Below are positions 3,203 to 46,720 of a stretch of DNA of 46,720 nt, piece after piece. The position numbers and the translations under genes were made by a program. The stretch's first letter is position 1; every line of letters starts with the position of its first letter. The notes beneath the pieces were generated by a model, which was given only the letters and a program-made list of their open reading frames with translations, was not told the DNA's origin and did no database searches. This DNA comes from a virus (lineage: Duplodnaviria > Caudoviricetes): positions 1-46,720 of IMG/VR virus record IMGVR_UViG_3300020120_000066, one strand, 5' to 3'.

Positions 3203-3779
3203 TCGCGGCTCCGTTTAGCTGGTAAGGCGATGTCACCCAGTTGCACCATGCGCGGTGCCAATCAGCGCATTTGCGGTTGTTGGCGAGTGCGTGATTTTTG
3301 AACCGCTCAAACTCGCTGGCGATCTTGGCGTCGTCAAAACCCTTCGAGCGGGCATAGTCGCGATCAGCGTCACTAGTGACGGTTTCGATCGAAATCGACC
3401 TATATATCTTTCTTTCTTTCTTAATCTTCTTACTCTGAGAAGAAGAAGAAGAAGAAGAAAGATTATATTCCGGCGAATTGTGGCCGTCACGCGTGACGTA
3501 ACGCGGGTCAAATACAAGCGTTTGAGATGGCTTTGTTTTTTGCTTTGTTGCGTCACCCGTTACGTCACGCATGGCGTCACGGGTGACGGGCGTAACGCGT
3601 GACGTAACGGGTGACGCTTCGCGTGACGTAACGCGTGACGCTTTTTGGCGCTCTCTGTATCTGCGTTGACGGATCGCGCCGGCCGTCCGAGCGGACTCAT
3701 AGCGTTCGACAGCGGCAATCAAAGCGTCACCCGTGACGCCTGCTGCTATGAGTTCGCGGAGGACTGGGATGATGCTCAT
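3021..3779 (-). CDS. phage replication initiator (O-like; C-terminal DnaT-like domain)
   Basis: N-terminal helix (RTAGAIRQRRYRERQK), repeat-rich linker, C-terminal FERFKNHALA...DWHRAWCNW motif. Confidence 0.7.
   Translation of the reverse strand: MSIIPVLRELIAAGVTGDALIAAVERYESARTAGAIRQRRYRERQKASRVTSREASPVTSRVTPVTRDAMRDVTGDATKQKTKPSQTLVFDPRYVTRDGHNSPEYNLSSSSSSSQSKKIKKERKIYRSISIETVTSDADRDYARSKGFDDAKIASEFERFKNHALANNRKCADWHRAWCNWVTSPYQLNGAANAANRHPKQKLADTLEALDRAFDLDAGGGFGESDSMVDITPDRAEGGAATGRTVAVRKPG
3400..3640. repeat. putative replication origin: GTGACG/CGTCAC/GTAACG iterons plus AT-rich (GAA)7 tract inside the initiator gene
   Basis: Dense CGTGACG/CGTAACG/CGTCACG motifs at 3484-3640 next to an AT-rich stretch (3400-3470) with GAA x7 at 3439-3459; lambda-like ori position. 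Confidence 0.65.
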
Positions 3780-9316: not shown

Positions 9317-9664
9317 ATGAACTTATTTGAACTGCACGAGCGCATGACAGCCCACCTGTTCCAGCCCTATTCCAGCGAGGATGAGCGCTTTTTGGCGCTC
9401 GCCCTGTGCGGCGAGGCCGGCGAATTGGCAAACATGGTCAAGAAACGCTGGCGCGATGGGGCCGATCTAGCAGACGAGATACGCGACGAGATCGCCGACA
9501 TTAGGGTCTACCTCGAACTCCTCGCAAAATGCTTCGGCATCGAAGGAGAAAAGCTAGACGCTCGCGTTGAGGACAAGCTTCGTCGAGTGGCGATTAAGCA
9601 TAGATTGTGGCGATTAAGCATAGATTGGCAAAATGATCAGTTTCCGACCAGCGAAGCGCAGTGA
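9317..9664 (+). CDS. MazG-like nucleotide pyrophosphohydrolase
   Basis: LCGEAGELANMVKK...IRDEIADIRVYL (EXXE..EXXD); start ATG 9317; C-terminus altered by a 20-bp duplication. Confidence 0.85.
   Translation: MNLFELHERMTAHLFQPYSSEDERFLALALCGEAGELANMVKKRWRDGADLADEIRDEIADIRVYLELLAKCFGIEGEKLDARVEDKLRRVAIKHRLWRLSIDWQNDQFPTSEAQ
9587..9626. repeat. perfect 20-bp tandem duplication
   Basis: gtggcgattaagcatagatt x2. Confidence 0.95.
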
Positions 9665-10577: not shown

Positions 10578-11387
10578 ATGGCTAAGCAGACTAAAGAGTC
10601 TCTAAAGATCGTCAGCACCAAAGAGCAGGTCGAAGTAAAAAAGTTTGATACTAAGCTCGGGAACATCATCGTAATTCCGGGCGTGGAAACAAAAACGCTG
10701 ATGACCTTACTCATTGGCGAGACGCCGCTGATCGTGCACAATTTCTCGCAGAAGCACCGCGACCAAATCCTCAAGAAACACATGGGGGAGGCCAGCGGTG
10801 GCCGTCAGAAGAAGGACCCGGTCGCCAACTTCGAGGCGGCGAAGTATGTCAGCGTCGATGGCTGGGAGGGCATCAAAGCGTCTGGATTAAAGGGCATGCT
10901 TGTCAAGGGCTTTAGCAAAGAGAGTGGCGTACCGAGGACGAAAGCCAAGGGCAGCGTCTATGTGCAAGCAGATTGCATCGAGACAAATCTGGTCCGGCTT
11001 ATCTATCCCAAAGAGCCCAAACATATCGCGAAGCGCCCGCATTTTCCGAATGAAATCGGTCGCGTGCCGCGGTGTCGTGAGGATGTGGTGCGCAACGAAA
11101 GCGGCGTCGTGGATATCCGGCACCGGCCGGAATACTGGCCCTGGGCGGTCTTGTTGCGCATCAAGTTCATCCCGACCGTTTGTTCCGAGAAGCAACTGCT
11201 GCAAGCACTAGCGGTCGCGGGCATGACAGACGGTCAATGCGAATGGCGCCCAGGTTCAAAGAACTCGGACACTGGTACGTTTGGTCAGTGCCGCATGGCT
11301 ACTGAGGAAGAGGTGCAGCTTTTCGAGCGCGATCAGCTTTTCTCTGATTACAAATGGGATCGCGTGATCCAGGAAGCAGCTGAGTAA
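10578..11387 (+). CDS. solitary RAMP/Cas7-like RNA-binding protein (Vipr-like), linked to the downstream pentamer array
   Basis: RAMP-like motifs in the expected order: TLLIGETPLIVH (beta1), GIKASGLKGML (cf. IPGSSLKG), C-terminal Gly-rich loop AGMTDGQCEWRP...GTFG; RBS AGGAGG. Confidence 0.7.
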   Translation: MAKQTKESLKIVSTKEQVEVKKFDTKLGNIIVIPGVETKTLMTLLIGETPLIVHNFSQKHRDQILKKHMGEASGGRQKKDPVANFEAAKYVSVDGWEGIKASGLKGMLVKGFSKESGVPRTKAKGSVYVQADCIETNLVRLIYPKEPKHIAKRPHFPNEIGRVPRCREDVVRNESGVVDIRHRPEYWPWAVLLRIKFIPTVCSEKQLLQALAVAGMTDGQCEWRPGSKNSDTGTFGQCRMATEEEVQLFERDQLFSDYKWDRVIQEAAE

Positions 11388-11389
11388 GA

Positions 11390-12627
11390 GCAAGGCAGTG
11401 CACTGCACAGTACAGCAAGGCAATGGCGGGACAGCATGGCAACGCATTGCATCGGCAGGAACGCATTGGCGGGCAGAGGAACGCAAGGCATAGGCGAGCA
11501 CTGCAATGGCAGGAGAGTGCCGGCGCGCAAGGCAGAGCAAAGCAGTGGTGAGCAGCGGACAGCAATGGCAGGAACGCACAGGATGGCAACGCATCGCATC
11601 GCATCGGCTTGCAAAGCATCACATGGCAATGGCAGGAGCGCATTGGCACGCACGGCATCGCACAGCATCGCATGGCATCGCATCGGCAGGAGCGCAGCGG
11701 CTTGCAGCGGTTTGCACGGCACGGCAGCGCATCGTACGGCATAGCAATGGCAGGAGAGAAGCGGCGAGCACTGCACTGCAGCGCAATGCATGGCAGAGCA
11801 GCGGATGGCAGTGGCAGGAGGGCATCGGCATGCAGCACAATGCATCGCATCGCATCGCACCGCATTGGCAGGCAATGGCAGGACCGCACAGGAGAGCACT
11901 GCACGGCACGGCAACGCATTGTAGCGCAAGGCAGGGCAATGGCAGGAACGCACGGCATCGCAATGCAGCGCATCGCAACGCACTGCAGCGCACAGCATCG
12001 CATGGCAATGGCAGGAAGGCACCGCAAAGGCATGCAGTGCACGGCACCGCATCGCACCGCAATGCACTGCAATGGCAGGAGTGCAGCGGCGTGCAGGGGC
12101 TCGCAGCGGCGCGCAATGCATTGCAAAGCAATGCATCGGCAGGAGCGGATCGCCAGGCAAGGCATCGCATTGGCTCGCAAAGCAAAGGACTGGATTGGCA
12201 GGAGGACATCGCAGTGGCAGGAGCGCAAAGGATGGTACCGGTAAGCAAAGCAGAGCACAGCATCGCAATGGCAGGACCGCACCGCAAAGTACCGCATCGC
12301 ACTGCAACGCATTGCACCGCATTGGCAGGCAATGGCAGGACGGCAGCGCATCGGCGTGGCGTGCACGGCAAAGCGCCGCATCGCAATGGCAGGACCGCAA
12401 TGCAGTGCATAGCATCGCAGCGCACGGCAGGGCATCGCGCCGCACGGCATAGCAATGGCAGGAGTGGCTTGCACCGCATCGCAGGGCACGGCAGTGGCGA
12501 GGATGGCATCGGCAGGACCGCATTGGAGGGCATAGCATCGCAGCGCAGTGGACCGCAGTAGCAGGACGGCAGCGGCATGCAACGCAATGCACCGCAGGGC
12601 AACGTAGCGCATCGGATAGGCAGGATT
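11390..12627 (+). ncRNA. putative guide-RNA array: about 22 units of GGCA-GGA-NN-(GCA-NN)n
   Basis: About 229 pentamers (constant triplet plus variable NN); GGCAGGA-type delimiters at 11425, 11454, 11508, 11567, 11631, 11685, 11749, 11813, 11877, 11941, 12010, 12074, 12138, 12197, 12216, 12270, 12334, 12388, 12457, 12511, 12560, 12619; all spacings are 4+5n. The repeat structure is directly visible; RNA function is inferred. Confidence 0.75.
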
Positions 12628-12631
12628 GAAA

Positions 12632-13147
12632 ATGAAATACACTTGGAGCCCCGGACCTAAACTAAAACTCGAAGCGCAAGTCTTTGGCGACACCATCGCG
12701 CGATTAGCCAAAGGACGGCCCGTCGAACTCGTGCCGCCAGCGGACATCGTGGAAGAAGCAAAAAAACCTCGCAGCCCCATTCACGGCGGATGGGATTGGG
12801 ATGTGCATCATGCTGCGGAATTACATTGGCGTGAAGTTGCGCGAGGGTACGTGCAACGCCTCTGTATTGTCAGGGTTTTGGTGAAGGGTGGAGAGCCGGT
12901 AAGTGGCCGCGCCCTCTACTCAATCGCGTCAGATGGCGAGCGGGGATATGCCACTCCTGAGTTTATCAGGAGTTCTAGTGATTTGACCCTGCAAGTCCTT
13001 GAAGCCGCACGCCGCGATCTTCAAATCTATTTGCACAAATACGGACAGATAACGCACACATTCGGTAAATATATTCCGCAACTTAACAAAATCGTTGATG
13101 AAATGTCAGAGGAAATCAACGCGCTGAGCAAAAAGGCCGCGGCGTGA
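12632..13147 (+). CDS. phage hypothetical protein, candidate accessory of the RAMP/array system
   Basis: PADIVEEAKKPRSPIHGGWDWDVHHAAELHWREVAR; the last array delimiter supplies an AGGA RBS. Confidence 0.75.
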   Translation: MKYTWSPGPKLKLEAQVFGDTIARLAKGRPVELVPPADIVEEAKKPRSPIHGGWDWDVHHAAELHWREVARGYVQRLCIVRVLVKGGEPVSGRALYSIASDGERGYATPEFIRSSSDLTLQVLEAARRDLQIYLHKYGQITHTFGKYIPQLNKIVDEMSEEINALSKKAAA

Positions 13148-13554
13148 TGGAACTCCGTCGCGATCATCCCCCTCCTTGGTGTGACGCGCACACCCTTGCG
13201 TGGCTCATTTGCGTGTCGACGCGAACGATCGACAATTGGGTTGCGCAAGGATTATTGCCGCCGCCGAGGAAAAGGGGCGGGAAGCGTTTCTGGCAGTGGA
13301 GTGAGGTTGACGCCGCGCTCAAGGGCGGCGAAGCTAACGCCGATCAGGCGGGGAGAATCCGCGATGCCACGAGGAAAGCGGCGGCCGAACTCAAACCATA
13401 TCGTGCAGAGCTTTGGCGACCTGACCCGCAAGGTGATGGACCCGAAACAAAATCCAAAATGGGCGAGATACAGTCGATCGACGCAGATCGGATGGGGAAG
13501 CGCCCTGATGTTCATGGCTCGCCCGGACACCCTCGGCTCGTTACCTCTCGATGA
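13144..13554 (+). CDS. excisionase-like (AlpA/MerR-type HTH) protein
   Basis: LAWLICVSTRTIDNWVAQGLLPPPRKRGGKRFWQWSEVDAAL; directly upstream of and overlapping the integrase. Confidence 0.75.
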   Translation: MMELRRDHPPPWCDAHTLAWLICVSTRTIDNWVAQGLLPPPRKRGGKRFWQWSEVDAALKGGEANADQAGRIRDATRKAAAELKPYRAELWRPDPQGDGPETKSKMGEIQSIDADRMGKRPDVHGSPGHPRLVTSR

Positions 13555-14302
13555 GATAAGACCGAGCCTCGTCCAAGGATTCTTCGACGGTATTGCCGAT
13601 CGCCCTGGAAAGTGCGGGCAGGCAATGGGTGCCCTAAAAGCACTAGAAAAATTTGCACTCGTTCGCGATTTGCTGCCGAGACAGATTACGCTAGGCGTCG
13701 AGATTGCGAAGTCGGACGGCGGTCACATTCCTTGGACGGACGAACAGGTGGCGATTGCCGAGGCCCATGCTCGGCCTGACTTGGCGCGAGCTGTGACGCT
13801 GGCGGCAAACACCGGGCAGCGCGGCTCCGATCTCGTCCGCATGTGCTGGACCGACATTGATGTATTCCGGGGAGTGCGTGGAATTTATGTAAAATCGACG
13901 GTAAAGGTCGGCATACAGGTATTTCTGCCCATCCCCGCCGAACTTGAAGCGGCCATGCAGACTTGGCAGCGGGAACCGGGACCGTTCCTTCGACGGCTCG
14001 ACGGACGGCCTTGGGCCCGCAAGGACTTGACTATGACGTGGATGTGGGAGCGCCGGCGCAATCCAGCCTTGGCCGAGCATCGCGCAATCCCGCTCGTCCT
14101 GCATGGACTTCGCGGCTATGCTTGCGTGCGCCTACGCCGCGCCGGGGCAACGGAATCTCAGATCGCCGACGCTGTCGGCATGAGTGTAAAAATGGTCGAC
14201 AAATACTGTCGGTTCAGCATACAAAAAGAGAACGCGGTTGCCGCTATTCACCATCTGTCCCGCGCGAATAAACTGAAAACCCAAGGTGGGACAGGCGCTT
14301 AG
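13364..14302 (+). CDS. int: tyrosine recombinase/integrase
   Basis: TGQRGSD (R), LHGLR (HxxR), GMS...VDKY (Y); ATG 13364 with GGGGAG RBS. Confidence 0.88.
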   Translation: MPRGKRRPNSNHIVQSFGDLTRKVMDPKQNPKWARYSRSTQIGWGSALMFMARPDTLGSLPLDEIRPSLVQGFFDGIADRPGKCGQAMGALKALEKFALVRDLLPRQITLGVEIAKSDGGHIPWTDEQVAIAEAHARPDLARAVTLAANTGQRGSDLVRMCWTDIDVFRGVRGIYVKSTVKVGIQVFLPIPAELEAAMQTWQREPGPFLRRLDGRPWARKDLTMTWMWERRRNPALAEHRAIPLVLHGLRGYACVRLRRAGATESQIADAVGMSVKMVDKYCRFSIQKENAVAAIHHLSRANKLKTQGGTGA

Positions 14303-37647: not shown

Positions 37648-38601
37648 TTAGGCCACGATGGCCGCGTTCGTCCAAGACGTGAGGCGATTGAAGCAATACT
37701 TGTGCTCATCGACGATCGACACGTCCCAGGAAATGTGCGTGCGGAAGGTCTTGCGATCCTGCAGCAAGCCGACATCTTCGGGAGTGAGGTTGCGCACGTA
37801 GATGCCGCGCAGCATGCCCTCGCCGAGCGTCAACACGTAGAGCGATGCGGTGACCGCCGAGCCGCCGCCGTTGCCGACCTCGTTGAATTGCAGGATGGGC
37901 TGCTGATCGTCCTTCGGGTAGCCCCACAACAGCCTGTGCCCACCGTATGAAATCTTCGGCATGCCGACCTCATCCCAGGTCTGCATCACAAAGCCCGTCA
38001 AAGTCGTAGTGCGGGCCGCCTGAATCCACAGCGGCAGCGAGAGGAAGGGCACGAGAATGTAGGTGGTGCCTGACTTTTTGCTTACATTGTTGATCGTCTG
38101 ATCGAGGTTGAGCAAGCTCAGTGCGGCACCACCAGAGGCAGTCGAGTTGTTGAGCAACCGACCAAAATCGACCGCGCGAACATTCAAGCCATTGAACACG
38201 CGCGGATTGACGGATCGGTCGCCCTTTATGAACGTGTCGATCCAGAGGCGGGCAAAGGCGGTGATGCCCATGCGCTCCTCGTAATTTCTGCGCTCCGGGC
38301 CGTGACGGTCGACGATGGCGCGGTCGATGTCGATGTCGTGGTCGATGATCGCGGTTGCCTCGTCAAATGGCGAGATCACGCCATGCCCGGTTGAGGATGC
38401 TTCGTTGATGCCGCGGAACTGCGGAGAGGGCAGCGCGGCCTCGCGGAAGCCAACGTACTTCGACCCACGCAACCCCTCGAACGGCATGACCTCGAACACG
38501 TCCGAGTATTGCGTGAACATTTCGATGATCGTGCGACGAATATCCTCGTTCGAGAACCCTTTGGCGTACTCGGTCAGCGTCATCAGATTAGAAACGGCCA
38601 T
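37648..38601 (-). CDS. major capsid protein
   Basis: LMTLTEYAK...IIEMFTQYSDVFEVMPF...ALPSPQFRGINE...FIKGD...FNGLNVR (BPP-1-like HK97 fold). Confidence 0.85.
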   Translation of the reverse strand: MAVSNLMTLTEYAKGFSNEDIRRTIIEMFTQYSDVFEVMPFEGLRGSKYVGFREAALPSPQFRGINEASSTGHGVISPFDEATAIIDHDIDIDRAIVDRHGPERRNYEERMGITAFARLWIDTFIKGDRSVNPRVFNGLNVRAVDFGRLLNNSTASGGAALSLLNLDQTINNVSKKSGTTYILVPFLSLPLWIQAARTTTLTGFVMQTWDEVGMPKISYGGHRLLWGYPKDDQQPILQFNEVGNGGGSAVTASLYVLTLGEGMLRGIYVRNLTPEDVGLLQDRKTFRTHISWDVSIVDEHKYCFNRLTSWTNAAIVA

Positions 38602-41904: not shown

Positions 41905-43413
41905 TCAGGCCATGACCCTCCGCATGCTGCGGCGCCCGTGGTAAATTTTCATCGGTTTCAATTCGGCCAGCGGCACTTTGCCGACCATGCGCCGGCCCTC
42001 GCCGAGCCCGATGCACAGGTATTGCAGCGCGTCGCACAGGTGCGAGTACTTGTCCTTCTTCGGACGCATTTCGCCGTCGTCCTCTTTCACCAAGTGATAC
42101 CGCCCGGCCATGCCGACGATCAGCGCCCGGCAGGCCGGCGAGATCAACAGCCGCGGCTGCCCTCGTGGATTGTCGTTGAGCACATAGGCCACGGCCTCCG
42201 TGCGCTCCTCGATCGCACCATCGCTGTTGTTCATTTTCAGAGGTGCCGGCGCAATCGGCATGCCGAACGAGCGGAATACGCTCTGGAAACTCTCATCGTT
42301 GACCTGCGATTTGTGGGTAATTGCCGGGTCGCCGACAAAGCGCGCCGTGTAGCCGGGGTAATGCGCGGCCAGAAACTTCTTGATCCGCGGCGCAAAGCGA
42401 TGCGCTGGCTCGTTGAATCCCAAAATCTCGTATTGGATGCAAATCCGCTGGTTGACCTCTTGCGCAAAGAGAGCGGCCGGATAGACGCGGCCAGCGTCGA
42501 ATGCGACCTGGACATCGACGCCCTCGACCGGCTTTAGCATTTCTCTCGCAACGTGGAGCTCGCGCATGAATTGCGGCCAAACCGGCGCGCCGTCGACGAC
42601 GAGCGCGACGCGGTTCATCAATCGCGAGTCAATCCAGGCTTTCGACGCGGCGCCGACGATCTGTTCGTCGTAGTAGTGCGGCGGCAAGTATTTGAGATTT
42701 TCGGCCTTCGGATTAACCTCATAGCCGATGATATTGCCGCGCTCGTCACGCTGCTCAATGAGCGCCGGCGGCTGCATGTAGAAGCCCCACGACTCGGGCC
42801 AGCGATAGCTTGCGATCTCGTCTTGCGTCAAACCGATCGGCAACTCGACCTGTCCGGTCATCATTGCCAGCCAATGATCCTCGTCCGGCGCGTTGGTGTC
42901 GGCAATAACGCCGCCCCACGGATTAGGGCCGCCGTGCTCTGCCGATGGATAGCGAATGCGCGTGCGGGCCTCGTCAAACAATTCGCGCAGCGCAATAAAG
43001 CCAAGCTCGTTAAACGCAATGCCGGTGTATTCCGTCGAACGCAGCTTGCGAACGTCCTCCTCCTTGTCGAGCGATAGAAAATCGACCTCCATATCGACAT
43101 CGGCAAATTTAATCCGGTGCTGCATAACCGCGCCCCAAGTAAAGCGCCCATAAACACTCTCGGGGAACGTCTCAAGCCAAGTGCGGATCGTCGAGCGGCG
43201 CAGGTCGGGATAGGTGTTGCGCACGACGGCAAACCGGCTGTGCCGCATCCCGTCGATCGGAGATTTCACCTGCTCCTGCGCATGCCGCATGATGCGGATG
43301 CAAAGCGCCTTGGTCTTGCCGGAACCGAGCGGCCCCTGAATGACATCAACGCGCTTGTTCGACGTGACGAAATCGGCGACCTTGGTCCCGGCAATGAAGT
43401 CAAACTCGCTCAC
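41905..43413 (-). CDS. terL: terminase large subunit
   Basis: Walker A IQGPLGSGKT, VVRNTYPDL, DTNAP, nuclease AFDAG and HLCDALQY. Confidence 0.92.
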   Translation of the reverse strand: MSEFDFIAGTKVADFVTSNKRVDVIQGPLGSGKTKALCIRIMRHAQEQVKSPIDGMRHSRFAVVRNTYPDLRRSTIRTWLETFPESVYGRFTWGAVMQHRIKFADVDMEVDFLSLDKEEDVRKLRSTEYTGIAFNELGFIALRELFDEARTRIRYPSAEHGGPNPWGGVIADTNAPDEDHWLAMMTGQVELPIGLTQDEIASYRWPESWGFYMQPPALIEQRDERGNIIGYEVNPKAENLKYLPPHYYDEQIVGAASKAWIDSRLMNRVALVVDGAPVWPQFMRELHVAREMLKPVEGVDVQVAFDAGRVYPAALFAQEVNQRICIQYEILGFNEPAHRFAPRIKKFLAAHYPGYTARFVGDPAITHKSQVNDESFQSVFRSFGMPIAPAPLKMNNSDGAIEERTEAVAYVLNDNPRGQPRLLISPACRALIVGMAGRYHLVKEDDGEMRPKKDKYSHLCDALQYLCIGLGEGRRMVGKVPLAELKPMKIYHGRRSMRRVMA

Positions 43414-46439: not shown

Positions 46440-46655
46440 CTACGCCGAAGCCGACGGCGTATACGTCGCCGTCAATAGCCCCTCGTTGTTGCGGTCAGTA
46501 ATCGTAAAACTCGTCGTCGCCTGCGGCGCGTTCTCAAACGCTATCTGAAACCGGTCCAGCAGGTCGATCAGCATGTTCTTCTCAGCCCGCCGCGTCTCCC
46601 CGTGCTTCGTTAGCGTCGCAGGCGTCGCAATCGTCACCGATAACCGCGTCGACAT
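46440..46655 (-). CDS. hypothetical protein
   Basis: AGGAGG RBS upstream. Confidence 0.6.
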   Translation of the reverse strand: MSTRLSVTIATPATLTKHGETRRAEKNMLIDLLDRFQIAFENAPQATTSFTITDRNNEGLLTATYTPSASA

Positions 46656-46720
46656 CGCTCAATCCTCCTATTGTGTCCAACCGGACGCCGGTCACGGTCC
46701 TGGCCGTTACGGGCATCCAA
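46594..46720. repeat. 127-bp end overlap, identical to 1-127
   Basis: Exact match. Confidence 0.95.

Follow-up and report, generated by a model that had tools for sequence, protein, structure and literature searches.

A natural staggered array of GCA-dominated pentamers between vipr and vap-like genes of a phage: a putative VIPR guide locus

The window analysed in this work is the whole 46,720-nucleotide stretch of the IMG/VR record IMGVR_UViG_3300020120_000066 (Duplodnaviria; Caudoviricetes). Its ends share a 127-base overlap (positions 1-127 are the same as 46594-46720), and the contig is probably a complete phage genome, either circular or terminally redundant. The genes found in it are those of a temperate soil phage, including a repressor, an exonuclease, an integrase, a terminase, a portal protein, a capsid protein, and tail genes. 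As the integrase matches come mostly from phages of Alphaproteobacteria, and one close vipr relative sits in a Xanthobacteraceae genome, the host is likely to be an Alphaproteobacteria/Xanthobacteraceae-type bacterium. Within this genome, an array of pentamers fills the interval between a gene for a 269-aa protein and one for a 171-aa protein. The features that are referred to in this work are as follows.

10578-11387 (+): vipr gene, P0001, 269 aa, RAMP fold (AlphaFold2 model, fold searches, and profile match to SUSP1 agp039)
11390-12625 (+): putative staggered vrRNA array; a lead-in of 7 pentamers, then 21 units set off by junctions, 19 of the 21 having 9-13 pentamers
11425-11453 (+): short 29-nt unit of 5 pentamers with the variant junction GGCG, as read from the sequence
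12010-12073 (+): unit whose antisense decoding with a 1-nt skip leads to a C-terminal motif of the terminase large subunit (terL), a candidate target in related phages
12197-12215 (+): 19-nt unit of 3 pentamers, from the spacing count
12619-12625 (+): final GGCAGGA junction, 6 nt upstream of the ATG of the next gene
12632-13147 (+): vap-like accessory gene, P0002, 171 aa (phrog_15946), which recurs in vipr loci
13144-13554 (+): excisionase-like gene, directly after the VIPR locus
13181-14302 (+): tyrosine integrase ORF, also directly after the VIPR locus and overlapping the excisionase-like ORF call
41977-42012 (-): terL site of the phage itself, the homolog of the candidate target, where 17 of the 24 read bases match

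The protein P0001 is a Vipr, a RAMP-fold homolog of the Vipr protein of SUSP1. Its AlphaFold2 model, based upon 108 homologs, has a pLDDT of 90.7 (a single-sequence fold gave an unusable pLDDT of 31), and the best fold matches of this model are the Csm3/Cmr/Cas7 RAMPs (Foldseek E 8e-5). A second fold search (VIA) also led to a RAMP match (Z 9.8, rmsd 4.3, 155 residues aligned). When the profile of the P0001 family was compared with SUSP1 agp039, the relationship was supported by both hhalign (probability 87%, E 3.8e-6) and hmmsearch (E 3.3e-7). The RNA-contact residues described in the structural account of SUSP1 Vipr, viz. H17, R138, D177, W178, and R179 (10.64898/2026.04.26.720927), align to H54, R183, E222, W223, and R224 of P0001. 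The numbering of agp039 used here fits that account at H17, R39, E71, M72, K82, R138, C173, D177, W178, and R179, although position 175 is V in agp039 and is given there as T (10.64898/2026.04.26.720927). No match was obtained for P0001 or P0002 in Pfam, and a PDB sequence search gave no match.

The gene for P0002 is regarded as an accessory gene because 50 other ORFs in the fetched vipr loci match it at E<=0.01, 33 of them at <1e-5. In the ESM Atlas P0002 matched unnamed viral clusters only, a word-index search found no further relative, and no local alignment was obtained with SUSP1 agp038. The locus is a minimal vipr plus vap locus: no cas family was detected among the 48 window proteins scanned, and neither a CRISPR repeat-spacer array nor a cas operon, the marks of Class 1 CRISPR-Cas systems, was found in the window. 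The Class 1 CRISPR RAMPs (Csm3/Cmr/Cas7) have the protein fold in common with this locus, whereas its guides have the form of a gapped pentamer code.

Each unit of the array consists of a 4-nt junction, followed by GGA-NN and then by further pentamers. The spacings between the GCAGGA junctions from 11454 to 12619 (n = 20) are 54, 59, 64, 54, 64, 64, 64, 64, 69, 64, 64, 59, 19, 54, 64, 54, 69, 54, 49, and 59 nt, and all 20 of them equal 4 mod 5, as does the first spacing (29 nt) from the variant junction at 11425, which brings the count to 21 of 21. The second variant junction, AGCA, is at 12560. A preliminary description, made from the letters of the window, had given these spacings together with a 4+5n rule, and both were reproduced exactly; the unit grammar that it proposed was likewise borne out, with GGA-NN opening every unit and a modal length of 64 nt or 12 pentamers (8 of the 21 units). 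Among the 217 pentamers of 20 units, the triplets are GCA (148), GGA (33), GGC (20), GTA (5), GGT (3), ACA (3), and GCG (2), with GTG, GAA, and GCC occurring once each; the minority triplets listed earlier (GGC, GGA, GTA, GGT, ACA, and GCG) are therefore all present, but the three singletons were missing from that list. The first position of the pentamer is G in 214 of 217 cases and the third is a purine in 193. The entropy per position in the 5-nt frame is 0.11, 1.03, 0.66, 1.99, and 1.90 bits, that of the NN pair is 3.82 of 4 bits, and the autocorrelation of the array reaches 0.52 at lag 5 compared with 0.18-0.30 at those lags from 1 to 20 that five does not divide; both measures had been proposed in the preliminary description. 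Its statement that NN varies freely holds as far as the entropy is concerned, but the pairs are not uniformly used (TC 33, GC 24, and AT 23, vs. TA 6 and CA 6) and they are biased at the unit ends, where the final NN is AT in 12 of the 20 units. The closing pentamers are GCA-AT (12), GCA-TC (3), GCA-GT (3), GGA-TT (1), and GGA-TA (1).

The 19-nt unit is likely a deletion remnant in which the register has been retained, and the last GGCAGGA junction is likely to serve also as the ribosome-binding site of the downstream gene, a role suggested by its sequence. The choice of triplet depends upon the base that precedes it (p 0.044 in the window and 1e-17 in the relatives). The predicted folding of the real units is weaker, by about 15 kcal/mol, than that of their all-GGC versions, a difference that their lower G+C content alone would predict. 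No stable hairpin was predicted at the junctions (7 folded stretches, z from -0.73 to +2.29). The idea that minority triplets are positioned against hairpins found no support among the window units (11 of 19, p 0.4); such hairpin-avoiding placement does appear in the relatives (115 of 178, p 8e-6). Rfam and tRNA searches gave no match, and a promoter and terminator scan gave results at chance level only.

The array is not an assembly artefact. Among the contig pieces listed, those from four soil runs tile positions 11194-12826 without a gap and with identical letters, although one soil run used in this check may be the window's own source. Among the matches listed from four further runs, a single substitution was observed in the array, at 11823, and there were no indels or joints in it. 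The substitution, a C>A carried by a single contig from run X9, changes GCA to GAA, a minority triplet that is already present in the array. The contigs from other soil runs are thus in agreement with the array, with no indel, and an assembly artefact, which the preliminary description had named as grounds for refutation, is not seen.

Tracts with a 5-nt period are present in 44 of the 59 viral loci that contain a P0001 homolog, and many of these are canonical GGC/GGT tracts. The window falls in a clade of 14 rows with a support of 100/100. When the window array is taken together with 11 related ones, 12 arrays in all, a single kind of 4-nt slip accounts for 211 of the 222 phase changes, and the remainder are of 3, 6, or 7 nt. 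The clade arrays are long, with about 20-40 junctions in several of the relatives; the share of GGY (GGC plus GGT) in them, as obtained from counts made apart from the generic array parser, which is noisy, ranges from 0.04 to 0.73, and that of purines at position 3 from 0.49 to 0.91 in 13 of the 14 rows. One relative (L002) has a whole unit twice, at 11095 and 12249. In another (L004:1966-4560), about 40 staggered units extend over 2.5 kb and are broken by a non-array stretch near 2137-2360. A sister lineage (L005:5375-6044) has a scaffold that is mostly GCG and a longer junction motif (GGCCAGTG...). The more distant Vipr homologs of L015, L016, L018, L043, L053, L054, and L055 are found with GTC/GTT scaffolds and, because several of these loci also have 4-mod-5 junctions, staggering extends beyond the GCA clade.

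The scaffold of the window differs from that of SUSP1. GGY makes up 23 of the 217 window pentamers, so the SUSP1-like GGY scaffold is not found here. The scaffold changes that were tested in SUSP1 include GGY>GGA, and perturbation of GGY abolished silencing (10.64898/2026.04.26.720920), and the structural account describes a Y3 pocket in Vipr that shuts out purines at position 3 (10.64898/2026.04.26.720927). SUSP1 residues E71/M72 align to S102/G103 in P0001. Small residues at these positions were considered as a sufficient cause of purine tolerance and rejected, as the GGT-type loci also have A-G there. In comparison with the type II VIPR of SUSP1, the window has a homologous Vipr in which the G1/G2 contact residues are kept, and two guides of a related phage decode under a wobble-aligned skip code. 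However, its Vipr is longer (269 aa vs. 195 in SUSP1), its vap does not align to agp038, and the four GGY guides of SUSP1, which the published descriptions report as separate and as ending in structured 3' tails (10.64898/2026.04.26.720927; 10.64898/2026.10.15.759431), contrast with 21 units that abut through a 4-nt junction and have no invariant structured tail of that kind. The locus is accordingly filed here as VIPR, but not as type II.

The closest likeness is to the staggered VIPR arrays, whose guides arise from positions that share a 1-nt overlap (10.64898/2026.04.26.720920, text and fig. S18 legend) and which are presented in that paper without confirmation by RNA sequencing. Like them, the locus combines a vipr RAMP gene with one accessory gene, is phage-borne, and has pentamers whose NN varies and which recur 9-16 times per guide, with a 1-nt guide offset (10.64898/2026.04.26.720920). 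Tandem runs of 9-16 pentamers with a G-anchored consensus are found in 19 of the 21 units, and the G that opens 214 of the 217 pentamers fits NNNNG; the 1-nt offset is seen, at the sequence level, in the junction spacings and phase changes given above. The alternative repeats named in the same paper are NNNGG, YNNNG, and NNNNG (10.64898/2026.04.26.720920), whereas the scaffold in the window is dominated by GCA and GGA. Fixed triplets other than GGY are reported beside Vipr-like folds in 21 clusters, e.g., GAC, CAC, WGT, and TGH, in a study whose text does not contain GCA, GGA, or "staggered" as words and whose motifs are all listed in its Fig. S10 (10.64898/2026.10.21.760802). The term GCA was not found in the main texts of the VIPR papers, and their motif-listing figures may show this clade, which may thus already have been drawn in print. 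In any case, published descriptions already exist for staggered arrays, for related consensus repeats, and for non-canonical triplets.

For 18 window genes, the dinucleotides in each of six codon frames were set against the NN frequencies. The best fit of the six was with antisense codon positions 1-2, where r is 0.81 both in the window (176 NN) and in the clade (2093 NN); this is what a 1-nt skip over the wobble base predicts. The fit was poorer for sense 1-2 (r 0.09 in the window and 0.42 in the clade) and for sense 2-3 (0.57 and 0.55, respectively). When 197 unique guides were decoded against the Vipr profile, two gave clear matches. The first, L006:11158, decodes to the Vipr motif YLPSMISANQLLQGI at 12 of 15 residues (0 of 200,000 shuffles), and its bases match best to the vipr gene of L002 (24/30), with a score only slightly lower (22/30) for its own vipr gene. 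The second, L072:7713, decodes to a different Vipr motif (10 of 200,000 shuffles). Since L006 and L072 are apparently the same phage, both of these guides count as one array. A third guide, L002:11325, has a marginal match to vipr (181 of 200,000 shuffles), and a weak match of L064:2991 to vipr is on the sense strand. Guides that target vipr are also reported in the description given in 10.64898/2026.10.15.759431. Another guide, L061:1539, matches its own locus (L061:3019, minus strand) at 25/30 under a 1-nt skip, which is possibly self-targeting or else a chance match.

At the bulk level, a 1-nt-skip test of the 197 guides on 1.59 Mb gave 38 real vs. 39 shuffled guides at >=80%, and in 1.84 Mb of DNA from related phages the scores for skips of 0-3 were similar. 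From the codon fit and the vipr decodings, NN appears to carry target or sequence information. In its claim that information is stored in NN, the preliminary description is supported by the codon fit and by the two guides of relatives that decode to vipr motifs, but not by the bulk skip tests, which were flat.

Target tests covered 19 window guides, the units other than those of 19 and 29 nt. When unit 12010 was compared with 57 gene profiles, it matched terL at residues 468-479 with 9-11 of 20,000 shuffles scoring as well, which becomes about 0.02 once 19 guides and both orientations are corrected for. When the NN pairs at its two ends were left out, the match weakened to 126 of 20,000. Among control decodings, 2 of 788 (p 0.0003 and 0.001) equalled the terL match (0.0007). 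An IMG/VR scan with 15 bases of this unit, a segment picked after the terL idea had arisen, gave 44 matches, and the terL site of a related phage was among the four best (21/24), a score that three unrelated IMG/VR sites also reached. We consider terL of related phages to be a candidate target of unit 12010, with the balance of these matches somewhat in its favor. For the other 18 of the 19 guides no target was found. Against 18 related arrays and the window itself, none of the window guides scored above shuffles, and all self matches were <=78%. In IMG/VR scans of further units, 12388 gave 5 matches (best 20/26) and no target; 12270 gave 26, the best of which (22/24, in AT-rich DNA) was judged to be due to chance; and 11813 gave 16 (best 22/24), the rest being in unrelated, mostly AT-rich phages. 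Unit 11941 had 31 matches in 401 genomes of the G001 family vs. 3 for a reversed control; this excess was attributed to codon-likeness and not to targeting, the one match of the 31 that was inspected being off the decoded frame in an apparent host signalling gene. Overall, the scans of these four units are regarded as no better than chance.

Based upon these observations, the array is almost certainly a VIPR guide (vrRNA) array, and the mechanism by which such a guide locus would work, as described next, is in our view very likely to apply. Each 4+5n unit would likely give rise to one guide RNA. In SUSP1, one pentamer is bound per Vipr subunit according to the structural account (10.64898/2026.04.26.720927); by extension from the SUSP1 work, one Vipr subunit would hold each pentamer here with the triplet kept off pairing, and the NN pairs would contact DNA with one base skipped, mostly the codon wobble base, so that they would read two of every three bases of competing phage DNA. 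Binding to the target would, again as in SUSP1, silence its transcription. The genes targeted are probably those of related phages, with terL as the target of unit 12010 and vipr as that of the guides of relatives. With one subunit per pentamer, selection would act on the register, and indels within a unit that are not multiples of five would be purged because all later subunits would lose register. The 4-nt GGCA step amounts to a one-base register shift that likely marks the end of one guide and the start of the next, and an overlap of one base between guides gives junction spacings of 5m-1, i.e., 4+5n. The preliminary description had favored selection on register together with information in NN over slippage; this view is supported by our results, the register being conserved in that 192 of the 203 phase changes in the 11 related arrays are the identical 4-nt slip.

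The antisense fit of NN also bears upon a variant of this interpretation, according to which the array is a VIPR array whose clade mainly targets the mRNA of rival phages, or writes its guides from one strand, with an antisense bias as the result. The three best-supported decodings are all antisense, and in the cryo-EM work on SUSP1 a vrRNA-RNA duplex can form; however, the same account describes complexes on RNA as mostly stalling incomplete (10.64898/2026.04.26.720927). Composition is in itself weak evidence, as sense 2-3 correlates too; the L064 match lies on the sense strand; and the targeting of coding-strand DNA would yield an equal bias. We therefore regard this variant as improbable in relation to a VIPR guide array that reads DNA. 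The rarity of GGY, the two short units, and the large number of guides without a target could alternatively indicate a decayed or decoy VIPR array, in which the GCA scaffold no longer guides and the register alone is kept, but the vipr and vap ORFs are intact, the RNA-contact residues are retained, the high share of purines at position 3 extends through 13 of the 14 clade rows, and real coding motifs are obtained on decoding a relative whose scaffold is a mixture of GCA, GGC, and GGA, which makes a nonfunctional array more improbable still. A satellite formed by slippage, or a protein-coding region of low complexity, to which ORFs of 327-493 aa across the array on both strands and tandem repeats of period 5/10/64 detected by TRF might point, is the least probable of all, being disfavored since the scaffold can hardly make stop codons (the minus strand has 1 stop triplet and the plus strand 11) and long ORFs are thus expected, most units have a length that is not divisible by 3, any window unit has at most 5 inner NN in register in common with any other, and similar arrays adjoin vipr homologs.

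Within the VIPR guide array interpretation, it is a tentative suggestion, which may well not hold, that this clade forms a distinct VIPR branch. In such a branch the scaffold would be relaxed to G-S-A/G-G-C, with a purine accepted where SUSP1 excludes it; 20-40 tail-less guides would lie on each long precursor, punctuated purely by the one-base slip without a hairpin or ribozyme; and the guides would be almost only antisense to the coding strands of rivals. If the last point holds, it would point to strand-biased guide addition. The long arrays of the clade provide good material for work on VIPR guide acquisition. The 21-unit array described here, in a probably complete phage, provides a natural example of the staggered architecture already described in print. 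As its GCA scaffold breaks the GGY rule that is explained by the SUSP1 structures, it offers a test of both a change in scaffold specificity and the cutting of staggered guides. If functional, a multiplex array that is short, lacks tails, and has a scaffold prone to fold weakly would also be useful for multiplexed silencing.

In 78 loci of phages whose capsid or upstream AAA gene shows them to be relatives, no match to vipr was found in the flanks examined, the capsid flanks stopping short of the matching position, and this absence suggests, weakly, that the vipr locus is an accessory module. Homologs of P0001 that are annotated as hypothetical are present in cultured actinophages, viz. the Gordonia phage UmaThurman (L112), which also carries a nearby homolog of P0002, and 27 mycobacteriophage records, and these phages are VIPR candidates ready for work at the bench. 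The major capsid protein of the window (37648-38601) has many IMG/VR relatives at 80-94% identity, compared with 65% for the best relative of vipr. Two other repeats were also observed in the window: short tandem repeats with a 12/24-nt period at 3573-3643, near the replication genes, and a perfect 20-nt duplication at 9587-9627, immediately before the AAA gene.
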